Below are positions 3,452 through 30,177 of a stretch of DNA of 64,000 bases, one piece after another. Source of the stretch: an uncultured bacterium (GTDB taxonomy: Bacteria; Chlamydiota; Chlamydiia; Chlamydiales; SM23-39); NCBI GenBank assembly GCA_964630875.1, contig CAZVXF010000006.1, positions 2,641-66,640 on the forward strand, in the 5' to 3' direction. Position 1 is the stretch's first letter. The number at the start of each line of letters is the position of its first letter. Under the pieces are notes generated by a model. That model saw nothing but the letters and a program-made list of their open reading frames with translations. It was not told the DNA's origin and made no database searches. Position numbers and translations under genes: made by a program.

Positions 3452-6400
3452 TCAGGTTATTAGGGTTTCGATTGAGAGCATAGATAAATATGCTTCTGCT
3501 GTGATTTCGGCATCAAGTAAAGCACCGTGCTTTGTTCTTTTTTGATTGATATTGAGCCGCAAATTCAGGGCATCGAGGCTGTTTTTTTTGTCTGGAAAGA
3601 GAAGTTTTGCAATGTCCAAGGTGTCGATGATTTGATGCTTTTTTCGGAAATCGTATTCAATGCCAGTTGCCTTGAGCTCTTCGGTAAGAAACTGAATGTC
3701 GTTATTCGCTGCATGAATAATTAAATCAGAATCTTGAATGAATTTGAGAAAATCTAACGCCACTTCATTAAATGTAGGAAATCGGGATAAAAATCGATGT
3801 GTGAGACCTGTCAAACGATGCGCTTCAGGTCTTACTCGGCATTCAGGATTTACATATCTTTGGAAGGTCTCATCGGTTCGTTTTAGATGAGTTACAACGA
3901 CACATCCAATTTCTGTGATCCGATCTGTTTTTAAACCAGTTCCTGTCATTTCAAGATCCAAAACAACTTGTCTCGTGTTAAGGGCTCTTTCTTTTAGCAT
4001 ATTGATTTTTAGAGCTGTAGAAAGGTTGGATCCGAGATTGGGAAGAGGGATTTGAATATGATCAACGTTTGCATTTACAGGGGGATTTTCGCTCTCTTTT
4101 CCTTGTTCTAGTTGATGCGCTCTTCTCAATAGCTGCTGTAGGACAATGGAAAAAGTCGTTTTTCCTTGAGAGAGGCTTTTTCGGAAAAATCCAAGCGCTT
4201 CTGAAATCAGGTTTAAGTGATAATAGGCCTTTGCTATTTTCATGCAAATATCAGCGTCAAGGCAATGGCGATCGGATGAAAATAGTTTATTCAGAATTTC
4301 AATAGAGTTTTTATAATATTCTACTGCTTCATTGTACTGTTTTTGTGCAAAATAGATGTCCCCGATCTTTTCTAATATCTCAGCGACCATGGGGTGATTG
4401 CGTGACCCGAACTCTTTTGTTTTTAGTTGGAGCGCTCGTTTAAAATAAAACAAAGCTTTTGACCAATTTTGTTGCGCAAAATCGAGTTTCCCAAATTCAT
4501 AAAACAAGTGTCCAAGCCCTACGTGTTCATCTGATTTCCAAAGTCTCACTTTGGCGTCAAAGCTTTTATTTAAATATGTAATGGCTGCTTCATATGCTTT
4601 TTGTTCTGCATAACTCATTCCGATTCCTTCTAAGCAAGAGAGTACCTCTAGATTTTCTGAATCGAATTTCAGTTCAATTTTGCCGGCTAAGCTTTTTGTA
4701 AAATAATCAATTGCCCTTTCTGGGTTTTTCTTTTTAAGCCAAATTGATCCCAACATGTATTGAATTTTAACTTGCAGATCTTTTGTTGTTCCTTCAAGAG
4801 CTTGGGAAAAGCACTCTAATGATTGATTCAATCGTCCTAAATGAAAGTAGACTTCACCAAGAGAATATAAGAGCTCAGGTCGCCTTTCAAACGGTGCGTC
4901 GATGAGCTTTGTTTTCAATTTCTTAGCAGTTAAAGAAAGTTGTAAGATTTCATTGGCTGGGCCCAAATCCTCTTTTGCAGTGATCTCGATCAGATTTAAG
5001 AATATGTCCTTAGCAGGTTTTAAGCCTTCTTCTCTCAAAACATCATTGAAATCTCTTTTCTGTCCCAATATTTTCGCCGGAGCAAATAGGATTTTCACAT
5101 TCAGTCCGCGTGAAAGAAAAGCATCTACAGTATCGATGATTGTCTGCTTGGTTTCCATATTGTATCCATCAATATCGGTGATTAACACGATCGTGCGGAC
5201 ACTTTCTTGAATCGGCACTTTGACAAGATCACTCACACCTAGTGCTGCTGTGAATTGACAATTGCATTTTTCTTGATCTTCATGAACAACGATCCCAAGC
5301 GATTTGAGTTCTTCCGGGTATGTTCTTGCGACCTCTAATGCGGATAAGACGTTTTCAGATCCTTCTCCTAAAATCTTAATTGTGGGTGTCTTGCTTCCAA
5401 AAAATGAGGTGCTCGCTCCACTAGTGACTCCTCTGGCAAGTTTCGTTTTCCATTTTTGTTTTGAAGGCTGTTTTGCATTATTCCCAAGAAATGTTCTTTC
5501 AATACCGGAAAGAACACCTTTTTCATTATAGTATGGAATCACGCGGGTAAATAATTTGAAATCTCTCACAATGATGGATCGTTCTGGGGATTCGATTTTC
5601 TGATGATCGACATAGGTGTTTTTATTGCAAATTTGAATCAGGAGCGATTTTTTTGGGTTTGTTAAACGTAATGTGACTAATAATGGTTGCGTATCTTGTT
5701 TTGAATCCCATCTTTGATCCGAAGAGATCGTCCAATATTGGTTGTCATAAAAAACCACCTTTCCTTCTAAAGAGGGTTCTTTTTGAAGAGCGCTTAAGAT
5801 TCCAGTTTTCTGATCTTTTGATTGGAGGGAGCAATTGTTTTCATGTTCGGTCCGGTCAGGATGTAACAGCATTGCCGCACGAAAATTCGTTGGGATATAG
5901 GAGATGCCCCGCAGCTGTAAATTGACTGCGACAATATTGTCTGGATCGACAATTTCACCTTTTTCATAAATGCCAATTGCTGCATTTTTCCTTTGCTCAA
6001 TGGATTCTTTGGAAGGAATGCCATTTTGGGATAGCTCCCTTTTTTCAGCGATTTTTTGAAGGATCATTTGCATTGGCAAATGTAAGTTCGAAAGTTCTTC
6101 TGCATCTTCGATTAAGCAAGCGCTCTTGAGCGATTTTGCACATCTACTTGCCCCTTTTTTTTGATCAAAAAGATCCCCGAAAGATCGTTTTTCGTGACTA
6201 TGTTCTGTACGGGGTAGAGCTATTTTTAAAGAGATTTTTTTTCTTAACAATGCGGAGATTACAGAATAGATCTCCTTGTTTTTATCGATATTGAAACCCT
6301 CATTATCGATTGCAAGAACAATTGTCCGAACCCTATTTTTTGGCGACCATTTTGATAGATCAACGGGTCTTTCTAAATAAATAATTTCTGTTTGTTCAGG

Positions 6401-7018
6401 AGGAGTCCCGTAAGAGGCGTTCCTCTCAATTGTTTGTTGGATAATCTCTCCAATTTTTTTGCTAAACGCAAGAAAAACAACTTCTGGTGTATCACTGGAA
6501 AATAGCGAAATCATTCCTGCAGGTAATGGGGACTCTTTCCTTTCGATTTCTTGAGGAGCTACTGTGACTGGCTTCTTGTTTTCGGGGGGTTGTTTTTGTT
6601 GCAAATGAGGAAGAGGGGGAGGCGTTTTTTTTTCTCCAGTCCGAGAAATGAGGGTATTTGCCTTCGGACAGGGGTTTTGTAAATTGGGTGCAGATTTTTT
6701 AGTATATCGAATTTCGGGCAGAAGTGGTGCTGGCAGGGGGGATAATGAGGGTTTAGATTCTTGATTTTCAGACTTGAGAATCGATTGTGCAATCTGAAGA
6801 GGGGCTGTTGTTTCTTGTTCTGTAGGGGTTATTTTAACGACAGTTCTTTTGGGCTTGTCTATATTTGTTGCAAAAGAAGCGATGCTCGGTCGCAGGGTAT
6901 CAATACATTTATCTAATTCAAGGAAAGATTCGGATCTTGCTTTTCTGAATGCTTTTTGAGATGCGCCAGTAGAGAGTCGAAAAAAAATAGAACCCATAGT
7001 TTTGAAAAAAAAGACCAC
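3452..7018 (-). CDS. large multidomain protein: Pro-rich N-terminus, two Toprim-like modules, TPR repeats, C-terminal DnaQ-type 3'-5' exonuclease
   Basis: 1188-aa uninterrupted ORF. The C-terminus carries ExoI VVLDLEMTGTG, ExoII IIHAANNDIQFL and ExoIII HGALLDAEITAEAY. TPR-like helices span about nt 4180-4890. Toprim-like module 2 (about nt 5035-5390) has KILGEGSENVLSAL ... TIVLITDIDGYNMETKQ ... KRDFNDVL. A degenerate module 1 (about nt 6150-6420) has TIVLAIDNEGFN ... SFGDLF. Confidence 0.7.
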   Translation of the reverse strand: MVFFFKTMGSIFFRLSTGASQKAFRKARSESFLELDKCIDTLRPSIASFATNIDKPKRTVVKITPTEQETTAPLQIAQSILKSENQESKPSLSPLPAPLLPEIRYTKKSAPNLQNPCPKANTLISRTGEKKTPPPLPHLQQKQPPENKKPVTVAPQEIERKESPLPAGMISLFSSDTPEVVFLAFSKKIGEIIQQTIERNASYGTPPEQTEIIYLERPVDLSKWSPKNRVRTIVLAIDNEGFNIDKNKEIYSVISALLRKKISLKIALPRTEHSHEKRSFGDLFDQKKGASRCAKSLKSACLIEDAEELSNLHLPMQMILQKIAEKRELSQNGIPSKESIEQRKNAAIGIYEKGEIVDPDNIVAVNLQLRGISYIPTNFRAAMLLHPDRTEHENNCSLQSKDQKTGILSALQKEPSLEGKVVFYDNQYWTISSDQRWDSKQDTQPLLVTLRLTNPKKSLLIQICNKNTYVDHQKIESPERSIIVRDFKLFTRVIPYYNEKGVLSGIERTFLGNNAKQPSKQKWKTKLARGVTSGASTSFFGSKTPTIKILGEGSENVLSALEVARTYPEELKSLGIVVHEDQEKCNCQFTAALGVSDLVKVPIQESVRTIVLITDIDGYNMETKQTIIDTVDAFLSRGLNVKILFAPAKILGQKRDFNDVLREEGLKPAKDIFLNLIEITAKEDLGPANEILQLSLTAKKLKTKLIDAPFERRPELLYSLGEVYFHLGRLNQSLECFSQALEGTTKDLQVKIQYMLGSIWLKKKNPERAIDYFTKSLAGKIELKFDSENLEVLSCLEGIGMSYAEQKAYEAAITYLNKSFDAKVRLWKSDEHVGLGHLFYEFGKLDFAQQNWSKALFYFKRALQLKTKEFGSRNHPMVAEILEKIGDIYFAQKQYNEAVEYYKNSIEILNKLFSSDRHCLDADICMKIAKAYYHLNLISEALGFFRKSLSQGKTTFSIVLQQLLRRAHQLEQGKESENPPVNANVDHIQIPLPNLGSNLSTALKINMLKERALNTRQVVLDLEMTGTGLKTDRITEIGCVVVTHLKRTDETFQRYVNPECRVRPEAHRLTGLTHRFLSRFPTFNEVALDFLKFIQDSDLIIHAANNDIQFLTEELKATGIEYDFRKKHQIIDTLDIAKLLFPDKKNSLDALNLRLNINQKRTKHGALLDAEITAEAYLSMLSIETLIT

Positions 7019-7047: not shown

Positions 7048-9420
7048 CTATCCCAACAAGCTTAAAAACCGATTTTTGAGCTTGTTTGGGTATACATAGA
7101 ATTGAATCGGAAGATTCTTTAGAGATTCAATAGCTGTGGTGCTTAGCCTTGGACAAGCAATGATTGTTAAATAGCGCAGCTTCGTGACTTTTGAAAAATC
7201 GGGTTGTTCTATGAGGGGAAAGTTTTCGATGTGAATTTCTAGAAGTTCGGGTTGTGAAGCAAGGAGTCGCGATAGAGCGTCATCTTGGATATGGATCCCA
7301 TCGCTTAGAAACATATTTGTACTTTTTTTGGGGAATTGACTCATGACGAAGATATCTTGATTTGCAACATTGGATAGGCTCGCGCTCCATGAAATGAGAT
7401 GAGGGGAATTTGTATAGATAGAAACAAGAGATTTGGCTTGAAGACGAGGGATGTTTTTCAGCGAAAAGGTCTTTAAATTCAAATGGATATTCGGGGGAAC
7501 AAAGTCTTCGATATCTAGATCATCAAGAAAGAGATGTTTCAGTTGGGGTAGGAAAATCTTTCGTACTCCTTCATCTGTGAGTAGATGGCAGTATGATAGG
7601 TCAAGGGTCATTAGTTTTTTACAATGGCGACTCATCCATTCAAGCGAACGGTCTGTCATTCTTGTACAATTGCGTAGACAGACTTGATGCCAATGCCCAG
7701 GATCGACATTCGTAATGGCTCCATCTCCCAAATGTCCCGAAGATAAATCGATGACAGGAACCTGTGGATGTTGATGAACATGGGAGATCCAGCTTTCCTC
7801 ATTCATACTGGGAGTCGCGATTAGAGAAAAATGACCACCTGGGGGAGCCCAAGCATTTTCTTCGGTAAGAGCATTTATTTCTTGGAAATACTCCTTGCAT
7901 TGGATGCTTAAGTCCCTCAGTTCCGGTCCGATATCATTGTTCTCGTCTGGATCTTTTTCTAAATGATAGCCTTTGTCTTGAATCACCTTCTTTTGTCCTA
8001 GAATGGCTCCTATTTGAAGCTCTTCCCTATGCATGGAAAAGTATGTGGGCATATTGACTTTGCGTAGGAGGCTCTTTCCAACACTATGATGGACTTCTTT
8101 TAGTTGAAGCATATCTAATACCGTAGGTAAGAAATCGACAAAACTAGCATTGCAATCCATCGTTTGCGGAGCGATTGATTGACCCAGGATTAAGAGTGGA
8201 AGATGAATATTTTCTTCATAGAGACTGTGATTGGTTTCAAAGTACGGCCTTCGCTCACCCATCTCTTGTCCATGATCCCCAGCAATAAATACGATTGATT
8301 TTTCTAAATTAATTCTCTCTAAAAACAGGTTTAGACAATGATCAGTGTACGCAAATGTTTGAAGGAAGTTTTGATAAGGATCATTTGTAAAAGATCCTGT
8401 AGGAGACTTCCATGGATGATGATTTGTAATCGTGAACAATGATAGAAAGGTTGGCAGATTTTGTTGATTAAGCCACTTCGCTGCATATCTAACCATACTT
8501 TCGTCATCTATACCCCATGAACTTGTCCTCGGCCCCTGAAGTTCTTCGCCACCAATCATTGTGTCAAAATCATGGCATTTGAAAAATGGATATAGATGAT
8601 CAAAAGATAAATCGCCGCTTTGAATAATCGCGTTATGGTATCCATTTTTTTTCAAAATTTGTGGTAACCCAATCATTGACATGGAACAAAAAGGCTTCAA
8701 ACTCACAGTTCTTAAATGCGCGGGTATTCCAAAGTATGCAGAGATAAAAGCTCTAAAAGTTTGCAAGCCATTTGCATGAAAGTTACGGAATAAAATGCCT
8801 TGTTTTGCCCACTTATCAAAATGAGGTGAAACAGGAATTTTTGCTCCCAAACAGCCCACATTTTTCGCTCGAAATGATTCGAGAAAAATAAAAATGATAT
8901 TTGGCTTTTCAAGTTTAACATTGAAACTTTTCTCTCCCAAAAAAGCATCCGTTTTCCGTAAAGCCGGATAAAGAGGGGAGAGCATTGTGGCGATTTCATT
9001 TGGAAAAGAAAGCTTTGGAAGATGACTTTTCCTTTTTGGCTTGTAAAAAGAAGCGAATAGAGAAAATGGGAGTAACAGACACCAAAACACAGAAGGGGGA
9101 GGGAGAAGAAAACATGACAAAAGACTTAAGAAAACACCAACACACAAAGGCTTTTTTCTTGGTATCGTTTGAAAAGAGTCGAAAAAGCATCTTGGAGATT
9201 TGATAAAAGTGAGAATGTCAGCTTGATAGCGAAAGAAACCATACCATCTAATATATAGTCCAAAGGCAAAAGGCACCCAAAGAAATCTAGGTAGAGGAGA
9301 AAGGATAAATAAGGAAAGGACAGTTAATTCTTGCGCGCTGCTGCGAAGATGAAGAGATTTGTTTTTATGCAGTTCGTACAAGCGAATGAAAAGAAAGAGG
9401 GCGAGAGTTGTACAGATCAT
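7048..9420 (-). CDS. membrane-anchored sulfatase / LTA-synthase-like enzyme fused to C-terminal CC-type leucine-rich repeats
   Basis: 790 aa. The N-terminus has several hydrophobic helices. The sulfatase core reads NIIFIFLESFRAKNVGCLG ... FTITNHHPW ... FIAGDHGQEMGE. The C-terminus reads CLRNCTRMTDRSLEWMSRHCKKLMTLDLSYCHLLTDEGV plus further LRRs (FBXL/AMN1-like). The last ~15 codons are encoded by the palindromic repeat at 7049-7096. Confidence 0.7.
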   Translation of the reverse strand: MICTTLALFLFIRLYELHKNKSLHLRSSAQELTVLSLFILSPLPRFLWVPFAFGLYIRWYGFFRYQADILTFIKSPRCFFDSFQTIPRKKPLCVGVFLSLLSCFLLPPPSVFWCLLLPFSLFASFYKPKRKSHLPKLSFPNEIATMLSPLYPALRKTDAFLGEKSFNVKLEKPNIIFIFLESFRAKNVGCLGAKIPVSPHFDKWAKQGILFRNFHANGLQTFRAFISAYFGIPAHLRTVSLKPFCSMSMIGLPQILKKNGYHNAIIQSGDLSFDHLYPFFKCHDFDTMIGGEELQGPRTSSWGIDDESMVRYAAKWLNQQNLPTFLSLFTITNHHPWKSPTGSFTNDPYQNFLQTFAYTDHCLNLFLERINLEKSIVFIAGDHGQEMGERRPYFETNHSLYEENIHLPLLILGQSIAPQTMDCNASFVDFLPTVLDMLQLKEVHHSVGKSLLRKVNMPTYFSMHREELQIGAILGQKKVIQDKGYHLEKDPDENNDIGPELRDLSIQCKEYFQEINALTEENAWAPPGGHFSLIATPSMNEESWISHVHQHPQVPVIDLSSGHLGDGAITNVDPGHWHQVCLRNCTRMTDRSLEWMSRHCKKLMTLDLSYCHLLTDEGVRKIFLPQLKHLFLDDLDIEDFVPPNIHLNLKTFSLKNIPRLQAKSLVSIYTNSPHLISWSASLSNVANQDIFVMSQFPKKSTNMFLSDGIHIQDDALSRLLASQPELLEIHIENFPLIEQPDFSKVTKLRYLTIIACPRLSTTAIESLKNLPIQFYVYPNKLKNRFLSLLG
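7049..7096. repeat. 46-nt imperfect palindrome, copy 1 of a 2-copy family
   Basis: The sequence is tatcccaacaagcttaaaaaccgatttttgagcttgtttgggtataca. A near-identical copy lies at 28901-28950 in the same orientation. The stem is CCCAACAAGCTTAAAAA/TTTTTGAGCTTGTTTGGG. Confidence 0.8.
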
Positions 9421-26728: not shown

Positions 26729-27961
26729 ATGAAAAACATCATTACGGTTCTCCAAGAACGTGGTTTTATTGACCAAATGACAAGCGAAGAGTTGCTAAAA
26801 CACGTTTTGCAGCCAATAAAAGTCTATGTAGGGTTTGACCCAACAGCGGATAGTCTACATTTGGGAAATTTGGTTGGCATTATGGGGCTGGCATGGTTTC
26901 AGAGATTTGGACATACTGCAGTACCACTGTTGGGCGGTGCAACCGGCTTGATTGGTGATCCTTCGGGAAAGAGCTTGGAAAGACCACTTTTAGATGAGAA
27001 AACGTTGGCATACAATGTGCGCAAATTAGAATCTTTTTTTCAGAAAATTGTGCCCGATTGTAAGGTAGTGAATAATGACCAGTGGATCGGACAATTTTCT
27101 TTGATCGATTTTCTGCGAGACGTGGGTAAGCACTTTCGGATTGGTCCAATGCTGGCAAAAGAAAGTGTGAGAGCGCGTGTGCAATCAGAAGAAGGGATGA
27201 GCTTCACCGAATTTAGCTATCAGACACTGCAAGGATACGACTTTTACTATCTCAATAAGCATCATGGAGTTACGCTTCAAATGGGCGGCAGCGATCAGTG
27301 GGGAAATATCACCGCTGGGATTGATTTGAATCGCAAGCTTGGGGGCACTCCGATTTATGGAATCACTTTCCCTTTATTGACGCGAAGCGACGGAAAGAAA
27401 TTCGGGAAATCTGAAGATGGAGCGATTTGGCTATCTGAGGAGAAATTATCCCCATATCAGCTGTATCAATATCTTTTTAGAGTCCCCGATGCCGATGTGA
27501 TTCGCTTATTAAAAATGCTCACATTCTTAGACCTTGAAGAGATCGCAGAAATTGAACAACAAATGCATGTTCCAAATTCCGCACAAAAAAGACTGGCTGT
27601 TGAAGTCGTTCGATTTGTCCATGGAGAAGAAGGTGTTCAATCGGCATTAAAAGAAACGAGCAGTATGGCTCCGGGATCAGAAACAGATCTGCGTGCAGAT
27701 ACGTTAAAAAACTTACCTCATACAGCATTAGGGCGAGAGGAAGTCGTTGGACAAAAGTTTCTAGATATTGTTACGCGTTTAGGCATGACACCGAGTAAAT
27801 CAGAAGCGACAAGGTTGATCAAAAATGGGGGCGCTTATATGAATAATGAGCGCGTGAATGATGTGGCTTTAGTCATTGATGAAAAAGATTTGATTGAAAA
27901 TACATATCTTCTCTTAAGCACGGGCAAAAAAAATAAAAAGCTGATTAAAATTGCTCGCTAA
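26729..27961 (+). CDS. tyrS: tyrosine--tRNA ligase
   Basis: It has the HIGH-type motif (DSLHLGNLVG), the KMSKS-type motif (KFGKSE) and a C-terminal S4-like domain. Confidence 0.95.
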   Translation: MKNIITVLQERGFIDQMTSEELLKHVLQPIKVYVGFDPTADSLHLGNLVGIMGLAWFQRFGHTAVPLLGGATGLIGDPSGKSLERPLLDEKTLAYNVRKLESFFQKIVPDCKVVNNDQWIGQFSLIDFLRDVGKHFRIGPMLAKESVRARVQSEEGMSFTEFSYQTLQGYDFYYLNKHHGVTLQMGGSDQWGNITAGIDLNRKLGGTPIYGITFPLLTRSDGKKFGKSEDGAIWLSEEKLSPYQLYQYLFRVPDADVIRLLKMLTFLDLEEIAEIEQQMHVPNSAQKRLAVEVVRFVHGEEGVQSALKETSSMAPGSETDLRADTLKNLPHTALGREEVVGQKFLDIVTRLGMTPSKSEATRLIKNGGAYMNNERVNDVALVIDEKDLIENTYLLLSTGKKNKKLIKIAR

Positions 27962-28889
27962 AAATCAATACGGTTGTCCTTATCTTCAACTGGCTCCCAT
28001 GGAAGGTGTGGGAGATCGCTCATTTCGACGTGCAATGGCTTTCATTGGCGGCTTTGATGAGGCCGTCCGAGATTTTATTCGCGTACCCACCAACGGTCAT
28101 GTAAAAAGCTTAGCCAAAGTATATCAAGCAAATGAACTTTTCCCAATTCCTCTCGCTGCGCAAATCATGGGATCAGATCCTCTTTTGATGGCAGAAATGG
28201 CACAAGAGCTTATGCGCGCAGGCGCTCCGAGAATTGATATCAATTGCGGCTGCCCTTCAAATACAGTGACCGGTCGAGGTGCCGGATCAAGCCTTCTTCG
28301 AGATCCAGAAAGTTTACATGTGATTGCCAAAGCGGTCGTTAGCTCGGTCAATATTCCAGTCACATTGAAAATGCGTTCTGGCTTTGATGACATCACGCTT
28401 TTTGAGGAAAATTTATTGGCGGCAGAAAGTAGCGGCGTTCGTTATATTACGCTTCATCCAAGAACAAAAGCAGATGGTTATGGGCCGCCTGCTCGTTGGG
28501 ATTTGATTGCAAGAGCCAAAAAACTCTTAAAAATTCCACTCATCGGCAATGGAGATATTTTAACTGTTGAAGATGCCTTAAATATCTTGCAACAAACTAA
28601 CTGCGACGCTCTCATGATTGGCAGGGGAAGTATCCGTAATCCCTTTGTTTTTCGACAAATCAAGGCTCATTTTGCAAAAGAAGAATACACGCCTAAAAAA
28701 GAAGACCTCTTGCAGTTTTTGCAGGTTTTTTTATCGGAGATGCAAGAAACGCCAATGAAAACAAAAGTCAATAAACTGAAGCAATTGCTTGGCTTTATCC
28801 TGAAAGAAAGCCCCCATCGACAAAAAATTTTAAGCTCAAGTCATCAAAATCCTGAGACTTTACTTCATGAGTCGCAAGAAATTCTGTAA
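27951..28889 (+). CDS. dus: tRNA-dihydrouridine synthase
   Basis: It contains LAPMEGVGDRSFR ... IDINCGCP ... VTLKMRSG ... ITLHPRT ... GNGDI. The start codon is TTG. Confidence 0.85.
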   Translation: MLAKNQYGCPYLQLAPMEGVGDRSFRRAMAFIGGFDEAVRDFIRVPTNGHVKSLAKVYQANELFPIPLAAQIMGSDPLLMAEMAQELMRAGAPRIDINCGCPSNTVTGRGAGSSLLRDPESLHVIAKAVVSSVNIPVTLKMRSGFDDITLFEENLLAAESSGVRYITLHPRTKADGYGPPARWDLIARAKKLLKIPLIGNGDILTVEDALNILQQTNCDALMIGRGSIRNPFVFRQIKAHFAKEEYTPKKEDLLQFLQVFLSEMQETPMKTKVNKLKQLLGFILKESPHRQKILSSSHQNPETLLHESQEIL

Positions 28890-28900
28890 TTCCCTCTTTA

Positions 28901-28950
28901 TATTCCCAAACAAGCTCAAAAATCGGTTTTTGAGTTTGTTTGGGTATACA
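28901..28950. repeat. 48-nt imperfect palindrome, copy 2 (see 7049-7096)
   Basis: The sequence is tattcccaaacaagctcaaaaatcggtttttgagtttgtttgggtataca. It lies between the dus stop and the RecT module. Confidence 0.8.
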
Positions 28951-28986: not shown

Positions 28987-29016
28987 TTGACTTAAATGCA
29001 TAAAGAAATTTATAAA
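28987..29016 (+). promoter_or_regulatory. candidate sigma70/66-type promoter of the RecT module
   Basis: TTGACT (28987-28992), then 18 nt, then TATAAA (29011-29016). If it is used, the first gene starts at ATG 29077, which is preceded by GGAGaaaagat. Confidence 0.3.
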
Positions 29017-30177
29017 ATTTGCGGAAAAACAAGAAACTATCGATTAGCGAATGATGAACTACTTTGGAGAAAAGATATGCGAATCTATCAAGTACTAGGC
29101 CGTTTTCACAGCTTTAGTAAAAATATTACATCTATACGGGACCCTCTTTGTTTGAAGACTTCCGCACTTGTAGGTCCGATTCTGTTTTCGAGCTCTAGAG
29201 GCGTTTTTACAGCTTTGCAAAAAGAGCAGTCAGGGTTTGTAGATCGGATCACTGGATTTGAGGAAAATCCAGAGAAACGAAAGTCAATGACTGACCAGCT
29301 GAAAACTTTAGGGTTTATGTGGAGTGGCGATAGTAAATCTTGGGTCCCTCGCAAAGAAGTTCAGATGAGTACAGTTGAAGCTATTTTAAAAGGTTCAAGC
29401 GAATCGGTGGCTCCTGCACGAGAAGCCATCTCGACTGCTGCGAGTTATCCAAAGAGAATTGATGGTCTTTTAACAAAATGGTCAGATTCAATCGGTAAAG
29501 TCCTTCCAAGACAAATCAGAAAAGATAAATTCATGGAATCTCTTAGAATTGCTTTGATCAATGCAGAAAGGGCTGGCAATGTTTCTTCAGACGAAGCTTT
29601 AAGAACAGCTTGTATGAGATGTGCTGAGATTGGTCTTGTTCCAGGTCCATTACAAGAATGTTATTTTTCAACTCGAGACAATCAAATCGAGTTTCTCTTA
29701 GGATATAAGGGGATTATCGCCTTAGCAAGAAGAACTTCTCCACACATCCAAATTGAGACCCAAGTGGTTCGGAAAGGAGATGATTTTTCCTTTAGTCTTG
29801 GAACCAAGCCGAAGGTTTCTCTCAATCAATCGATCGATGCAAATCCAGAAGAGATCGAATATGCATACGTGCTCATCCGATTCCCTGAAGGAGTAGAAAA
29901 ACTTGTCGTGATTGATAAGGCGCATGTTGAAAAGAGAAAAGCGTGTTCGAAAGGCGTACATGCTACGAGCTCTCCTTGGAATAAATTCCAAAGAGAGATG
30001 TGGCTAAAGACTGCGTTAAGAGAGGCTTTTAGGTTTGTAAACCTTTCAACCGAAACAAATATCTCGCAAGACTTTGACCATGCAAAGCAATCGATTCGAG
30101 AATTTATCCATTACCTTCAAGATGAAGTTGAGGATTTTGAGAAAAAAGAAATAGGAAAAACGGAAACTTCTATATGA
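28996..30177 (+). CDS. RecT-family single-strand annealing protein with N-terminal extension (paralog 1; alternative start 29077)
   Basis: The C-terminal ~220 aa read ...CAEIGLVPGPLQECYFSTRDNQIEFLLGYKGIIALARRTSPHIQIETQVVRKGDDFSF...YAYVLIRFPEG...SSPWNKFQREMWLKTALREAFRFV, which is the RecT pattern. The N-terminus carries KTLGFMWSGDSKSWVP. Confidence 0.7.
   Translation: MHKEIYKICGKTRNYRLANDELLWRKDMRIYQVLGRFHSFSKNITSIRDPLCLKTSALVGPILFSSSRGVFTALQKEQSGFVDRITGFEENPEKRKSMTDQLKTLGFMWSGDSKSWVPRKEVQMSTVEAILKGSSESVAPAREAISTAASYPKRIDGLLTKWSDSIGKVLPRQIRKDKFMESLRIALINAERAGNVSSDEALRTACMRCAEIGLVPGPLQECYFSTRDNQIEFLLGYKGIIALARRTSPHIQIETQVVRKGDDFSFSLGTKPKVSLNQSIDANPEEIEYAYVLIRFPEGVEKLVVIDKAHVEKRKACSKGVHATSSPWNKFQREMWLKTALREAFRFVNLSTETNISQDFDHAKQSIREFIHYLQDEVEDFEKKEIGKTETSI

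Follow-up and report, generated by a model that had tools for sequence, protein, structure and literature searches.

A dispersed palindrome in a chlamydial genome as the probable minimal form of an orphan IS630-derived MITE

A near-perfect palindrome that occurs twice in a 64,000-nt stretch of chlamydial DNA (the window; C6:2641-66640 of genome G000, an assembly of 1.37 Mb in 52 contigs with 40.5% GC and 91% completeness) is, with a probability of about 0.8, the minimal, inverted-repeat-only form of an orphan IS630-derived MITE. The family would derive from an IS630-family element, with the 164-nt forms and the solo arms of ~80 nt as longer relatives that have common ends. An IS630-family DDE transposase would bind these ends over ~26 bp, insert the element at TA, and move it in trans. 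As the genome no longer encodes the transposase, the copies found here are probably immobile fossils.

The two copies and their flanking genes

The two copies, a related element, and the genes beside the copies are located in the window as follows.

28901-28948: copy 2, a 48-nt mini-MITE with the sequence TATTCCCAAACAAGCTCAAAAATCGGTTTTTGAGTTTGTTTGGGTATA, made up of TA (28901-28902), a 44-nt core TtCCC...GGGTA (28903-28946), and TA (28947-28948)
7049-7094: copy 1, a degraded 46-nt mini-MITE of the 'TTTTTAAGCTTG' subtype, with a left arm that lacks two A's
~62967-63133: a diverged sister-subfamily element of ~165 nt, with the ends TA(T/A)ACCGAAA...TTCGGTATA (also given as ...TTTCGGTATA)
27951..28889, plus strand: dus, tRNA-dihydrouridine synthase (PF01207, 3e-61)
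28996..30177, plus strand: first RecT-family ORF, downstream of copy 2 (PF03837)
7048..9420, minus strand: sulfatase/LRR ORF of 790 aa, with its 3' end running through copy 1
3452..7018, minus strand: Toprim/TPR/DnaQ-like exonuclease ORF, downstream of copy 1 on the minus strand

The initial annotation had described a palindrome with an 18-20 bp stem upstream of two DNA-processing loci, and this description holds. The palindrome is near-perfect at both sites, copy 1 ends ~30 nt before the GTG at 7018, and copy 2 lies upstream of the RecT module. As single strands, all four stretches of 68-70 nt around the copies fold stably, at -20 to -26 kcal/mol (z -4.8 to -7.0). The core of copy 2 consists of two 20-nt terminal inverted repeats and a TCGG joint. 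It is one base apart from the copies at C5:47159 and C11:28066, with which it has a G/A arm asymmetry in common, and its identity to the copies on C5, C1, and C11 is 96-98%, compared with 87% to copy 1; the two window copies are different subtypes and not each other's closest relatives. An 18-nt search allowing up to three mismatches returned exactly four half-site arms in the window, two per copy, where shuffled sequences give an expectation of 0.25. The statement that the palindrome occurs only twice in the window is thus correct for this subfamily; the window also contains the diverged 165-nt sister, which resembles the element at C8:55811-55974 of G000 and one MITE of G007, and whose ends are closer to those of IS630. 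This sister element sits within a 210-aa minus-strand ORF (62657-63289) that is probably spurious.

Eleven nucleotides separate the dus stop codon from copy 2. The dus gene is kept in five same-genus relatives, where unrelated genes follow it and neither the palindrome nor the RecT module is found (0/5). The true start of the first RecT-family ORF is likely the ATG at 29078, and the stretch from 28996 to 36196 holds two tandem RecT-family ORFs, a PDDEXK_2 (Rpn-like) ORF, and a 1350-aa RecQ-helicase fusion ORF that contains a weak PolA-like stretch. This RecT cluster looks accessory, because it is missing downstream of dus in the five same-genus relatives. In the same-genus genome G006 (C12, L043 ~2200-2400), three unrelated, perfect palindromes stand in a row after the dus stop codon; the position after dus is occupied by different hairpin repeat families in different species. 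No alignable empty site for the window copies was found in the same-genus genomes, which are ~70% identical and not syntenic past dus.

Copy 1 falls within the final 16 codons of the sulfatase/LRR ORF; on the minus strand it codes for the 15 C-terminal residues (VYPNKLKNRFLSLLG) and contributes part of the stop codon. The ortholog in G002 ends with ...ESLKDLPIPVPSFY and a stop codon, with no palindrome, and the window protein runs on as ...NLPIQFYVYPNKLKNRFLSLLG before its stop; computed excision of copy 1 together with one TA gives a predicted ancestral tail of ...QFYVEFNSHLQ followed by a stop. The insertion would thus have replaced the last eight sulfatase/LRR codons with 15 element-encoded codons, with the terminal TA joining the TAG stop. 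This change of the C-terminal tail and stop is the sole demonstrable local effect of the copies. Both copies lie at places where the gene order departs from that of relatives, and the copies may mark junctions of accessory DNA, two cases being too few for a claim. Their placement beside the RecT and Toprim loci is best taken as chance, or at most as a tendency toward junctions of variable DNA.

A dispersed family with inverted ends and a TA duplication

The element can be written as 5'-TACCCAAACAAnCTCAAAAA-YCGR-TTTTTGAGnTTGTTTGGGTA-3', with a TA target-site duplication on each flank, and the palindrome consists of two terminal inverted repeats (TA followed by TACCCAAACAAnCTCAAAAA) and the YCGR joint. 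The arm TATACCCAAACAAnCTCAAAAA was found in three forms: a 48-nt unit of arm-YCGR-arm, a long arm of ~80 nt (...TCGGTTTTTAAGCTGCGCGAAAGCTGCCGAATTTCAACGATCGCAAGTGCCTTAATAT), and inverted pairs of long arms of 164 nt, for example at C10:21104-21267. As expected of a MITE, inverted ends of 20-26 nt are kept in all forms, and the elements are small (44-164 nt), non-coding, and dispersed. The long form holds 9-nt direct repeats, TTTTTAAGC in the left arm and TTTTTGAGC at the right end, and slippage between them could have turned the long form into the short one. The short subtypes present, ...TTTTTAAGCTTG... and ...TTTTTGAG(C/T)TTG..., are exactly those predicted by slippage.

Genome-wide, 70 half-site matches were obtained, compared with eight for the reversed control. 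The genome contains 16 full palindromes and, after grouping of the arms, ~42 family loci. The genome density gives 1.96 expected loci per 64 kb, and the window's two equal the random expectation. Of the 42 loci, at least 38 lie between genes (P ~3e-36), compared with an intergenic fraction of 8.6% that derives from crude ORF calls. The loci lie between tandem, convergent (C20:9607), and divergent gene pairs, and their neighbours include the genes for ribosomal protein S20, adenylate kinase, aroD/aroE, sctJ, dnaX, and Fic, as well as a HAD hydrolase, a DeoC-type aldolase, and a CDP-alcohol phosphatidyltransferase. Intact TATA is present on both sides of 12 of the 16 full copies, and the remaining four are off by one or two bases. 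No Rfam family scored above threshold for any form, with only sub-threshold miRNA-hairpin noise returned.

The TA duplication was read from another family of the order, and not from this genome, by pairing filled and empty sites of G196 and G221, two species of genus g112 that are ~80% identical.

164-nt element: G221 empty ...GAGC-TA-TAAGGAG; G196 filled ...GAAC-TA[...]TA-TAAGGAG
81-nt element: G221 empty aaaa-TA-atc; G196 filled aaaa-TA[...]TA-atc
65-nt element: G221 empty ctcattt-TA-agtgc; G196 filled ctcattt-TA[...]TA-cgtgc
48-nt palindrome: G221 empty aatct-TA-tatggctgc; G196 filled agtta-TA[...]TA-tatggctgc
Second 164-nt element: G221 empty gtc-TA-aa; G196 filled ctc-TA[...]TG-aaaa

In four clean pairs and in a fifth with one mutated base, a single TA at the empty site corresponds to TA-[TACCC...GGGTA]-TA at the filled site; the right duplicate of the second 164-nt element is TG, one base changed from TA. 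Therefore, the true element is TACCC...GGGTA, and its insertion duplicates TA, a hallmark of IS630/Tc1-mariner transposition. At a sixth locus, the element is absent in the comparison genome, and the flanks are too diverged for the duplication to be read.

Two further observations were made in this species pair. The 164-nt MITE at G196:C3:12927-13090, compared with G221:C18, seemingly lies inside a conserved coding region, with protein similarity on both sides. An arm-containing repeat of ~680 nt (G196:C5:13754-14436) was rejected as a member of the family. This repeat, present in more than 15 copies in G196 and with its site empty in G221, belongs to another kind of MITE: its ends are GCATGGTTCAAAATA, inverted repeats of 196 nt lie inside it, the duplication is apparently of 8 bp, and it has picked up a solo arm of the TACCCAAACAA family.

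Candidate parent element and spread across the order

DDE_3 transposases were found in 92 of the 301 genomes of the order. An IS630 clade with ends similar to those of the MITE occurs in G206, G203, G288, G305, G162, and G226, and as a remnant in the same-genus G007. The ends of this clade, TATACC[CG]AAG.AA..TCAAAA.T.GG with the variants TATAC[CT]CAAGG..., TATACCGAAG..., and ...TCAAAAATCGG, are TA-flanked and identical to the MITE end at 19-21 of 26 positions, a level of identity that the G206 IS also has between its own two ends; past ~26 nt, the similarity fades. G206 carries an intact IS copy of 1119 bp with a 352-aa ORF, and the transposase of the clade matches NF033545 at 220 bits (cut-off 100) and contains the domains HTH_29, HTH_33, and DDE_3. 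G000, G007, and the window at ~62967-63133 also contain a sister MITE subfamily (TATACCGAA...). Where the main subfamily departs from the IS ends, the TATACCGAA start agrees with them, so that by inspection this sister subfamily bridges the MITE and IS ends.

The DDE_3 profile gave no match in the MITE-bearing genomes G000, G196, G221, G129, and G098, the last of which has two contigs and 77 arms. Because these five genomes are without such a transposase, the assignment of the enzyme draws on end similarity and TA specificity, which make an IS630-family enzyme a well-supported candidate for the mover. In G000, C1:97087-97173 retains 28 codons (MNFLSDVERAQLIVQHKQERDNRIS) from the N-terminus of an IS630-family transposase as a fossil (60-72% identical, E 2e-4 to 1e-3). 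The fossil lies directly after a DnaJ-domain gene and has kept no ends. Among the ORFs that adjoin solo arms in G000 (kinase, DnaJ, and others; translations read by eye), none is evidently a transposase, and no IS whose ends equal those of the MITE was detected. When metagenomes were scanned for an exact MITE end together with a transposase N-terminus, a single match was returned, a chance solo arm before a SIS-domain gene. A hidden IS copy is possible, because the assembly is incomplete (91%) and broken at repeats.

The distribution of the family is patchy. The arm, with up to two mismatches, is present in 11 of 40 relatives and in one of seven same-genus genomes, and a degenerate end motif was found in 68 of the 301 genomes of the order, the reversed control giving 0 in every genome. 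The largest count is 112 arms in one genome, and genus g65, whose genomes are 1.0-1.3 Mb, has none. In a species-representative collection, exact 25-nt matches were confined to 175-nt elements of one Simkaniaceae MAG, whose genes have no more than 66-74% identity to their counterparts in G000. The elements of G034, G098, G196, and the Simkaniaceae MAG have common ends and differing interiors, as do those within G000, and palindromes of 36-48 nt made of the two ends alone recur in G034, G098, and G196. Fixed ends with free interiors are the signature of element ends recognised by a protein. In the two-contig G098, arm pairs 0.7-3 kb apart enclose no transposase; the ORF of 292 aa between the two arms of the one 1.2-kb pair is, judged without a Pfam check, not evidently one. 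The literature that we searched contains no description of MITEs or such repeats in Chlamydiae, and the family is apparently undescribed in this group.

Alternative readings, known repeats, and implications

The 44-bp element may be too short for transposition as such. A more far-reaching proposal, which we regard as tentative and rather improbable, is that the 44-bp unit is itself the transposing entity and that the superfamily is an order-wide orphan, re-mobilised solely on the arrival of an IS630 transposase, as from another symbiont in the same amoeba. Bearing on the mobility of the 44-bp unit are at least four copies with the same G/A arm asymmetry and a 48-nt copy at a site that is empty in the sister species; bearing on the orphan superfamily are 25-nt identical ends despite a gene identity of ~70%, and MITE-rich genomes without transposase. 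If this were true, the 44-bp unit would rank among the smallest mobile DNA elements known.

It is unlikely that the copy after dus has been exapted as an RNA hairpin that terminates transcription, stabilises a 3' end, or insulates the RecT promoter from dus. Its position 11 nt past the stop codon, its stable fold (-25 kcal/mol), the many family members just after gene ends, and the known effects of this kind in Correia elements (PMC2229807) are consistent with such a role, but no T-run follows the stem, and copies are equally frequent between divergent gene starts. The idea that the palindrome is primarily a terminator or insulator is unsupported, as neither copy has a T-run or a call in the terminator scan; a hairpin side effect on the 3' end of the dus mRNA is possible. 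Beside copy 2, no consensus promoter was called.

Movement of a REP/REPIN by a RAYT, or of a hairpin by a Y1 transposase of the IS200/IS605 kind that works on single-stranded DNA, is very improbable. Such a mechanism would suit a repeat that is palindromic, dispersed, and intergenic, with inverted doublets and singlets, and a Y1_Tnp fragment is present at the edge of contig C15. However, insertion duplicates TA, which Y1 enzymes do not do, the fragment, the sole Y1 match, is of the IS200 type and its downstream end has no similarity to the palindrome, and no arm pair in the two-contig G098 flanks a gene of RAYT size. The earlier suggestion of a REP-like selfish repeat is therefore retained as to the selfish repeat, and the REP/RAYT mechanism gives way to a MITE of IS630 type with terminal inverted repeats and a TA duplication. 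The Y1 fragment itself (G000 C15:5-88) is the C-terminal part of the transposase and is followed by a hairpin and then by prfB with its programmed-frameshift site (CTT TGA C). An attC site was rejected on sequence, there being no R''/R' cores and no extrahelical bases.

Least credible of all is the shared operator put forward in the initial annotation, in which the RecT module and the Toprim/TPR/DnaQ gene are jointly regulated by a dimeric protein bound to the palindrome. The dyad is perfect and upstream of both loci, but dozens of copies occur genome-wide with no tie to these gene families, the ~42 loci adjoining unrelated genes and some lying between convergent ends without a promoter (C20:9607), copy 1 is within a coding region, two copies per window is the random expectation, the palindrome is missing at the dus locus of relatives, and the same ends recur with variable interiors in 68 genomes. 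The sites are not confined to promoters of functionally linked genes, as those of a regulon would be.

The IS630-derived MITE reading places the element close to RUP of pneumococcus, which is likewise a small, non-coding, intergenic, TA-inserting repeat with IS630-like ends, and whose link to IS630-Spn1 was also inferred from end similarity and TA targeting (PMC2229807). RUP is 107 bp and coexists with its IS, whereas the present element goes down to 44 bp, extends over an entire bacterial order with many different interiors, and is an orphan here. Correia/NEMIS elements of Neisseria are 100-160 bp long and occur in many copies; their inverted repeats of 24-26 bp start with TA, they duplicate TA, their transcripts form hairpins, and the host genome encodes no cognate transposase (PMC2229807), all of which recall the present family. 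There is no sequence similarity between the two, a plausible parent IS clade was found for the present family, and the IHF site and promoter motif of Correia/NEMIS are not features established for it. REPs and REPINs are similar as short dispersed intergenic palindromes with inverted doublets and decaying singlets, but they have no target duplication and need a single-copy, REP-flanked Y1 RAYT, neither of which is true here. Rickettsia palindromic elements also occur in an obligate intracellular host and can enter coding sequence, as copy 1 has done; they differ as typically in-frame internal insertions of 100-150 bp with a mechanism that is unknown, compared with the replacement of a C-terminal tail only. 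The element thus resembles RUP and Correia: its inverted repeats are flanked by TA, insertion duplicates TA, it could form a hairpin, and it lies between genes. It has the features of a MITE, and those that define REP/RAYT systems, operators, and intrinsic terminators are absent.

What is new beyond these precedents is the minimal size of 44 bp and the order-wide orphan status. For the two loci, the analysis does away with a tempting but false regulatory link, and for annotation it supplies a defined repeat family that has a consensus, true ends, and a TA duplication. The family breaks assemblies of chlamydial MAGs, makes spurious ORF tails, as with copy 1, and marks variable junctions. It is present in about one-fifth of the sampled genomes of the order, mostly without a transposase, and can serve as a modest marker of earlier IS630 activity, and possibly also of DNA exchange among amoeba symbionts.
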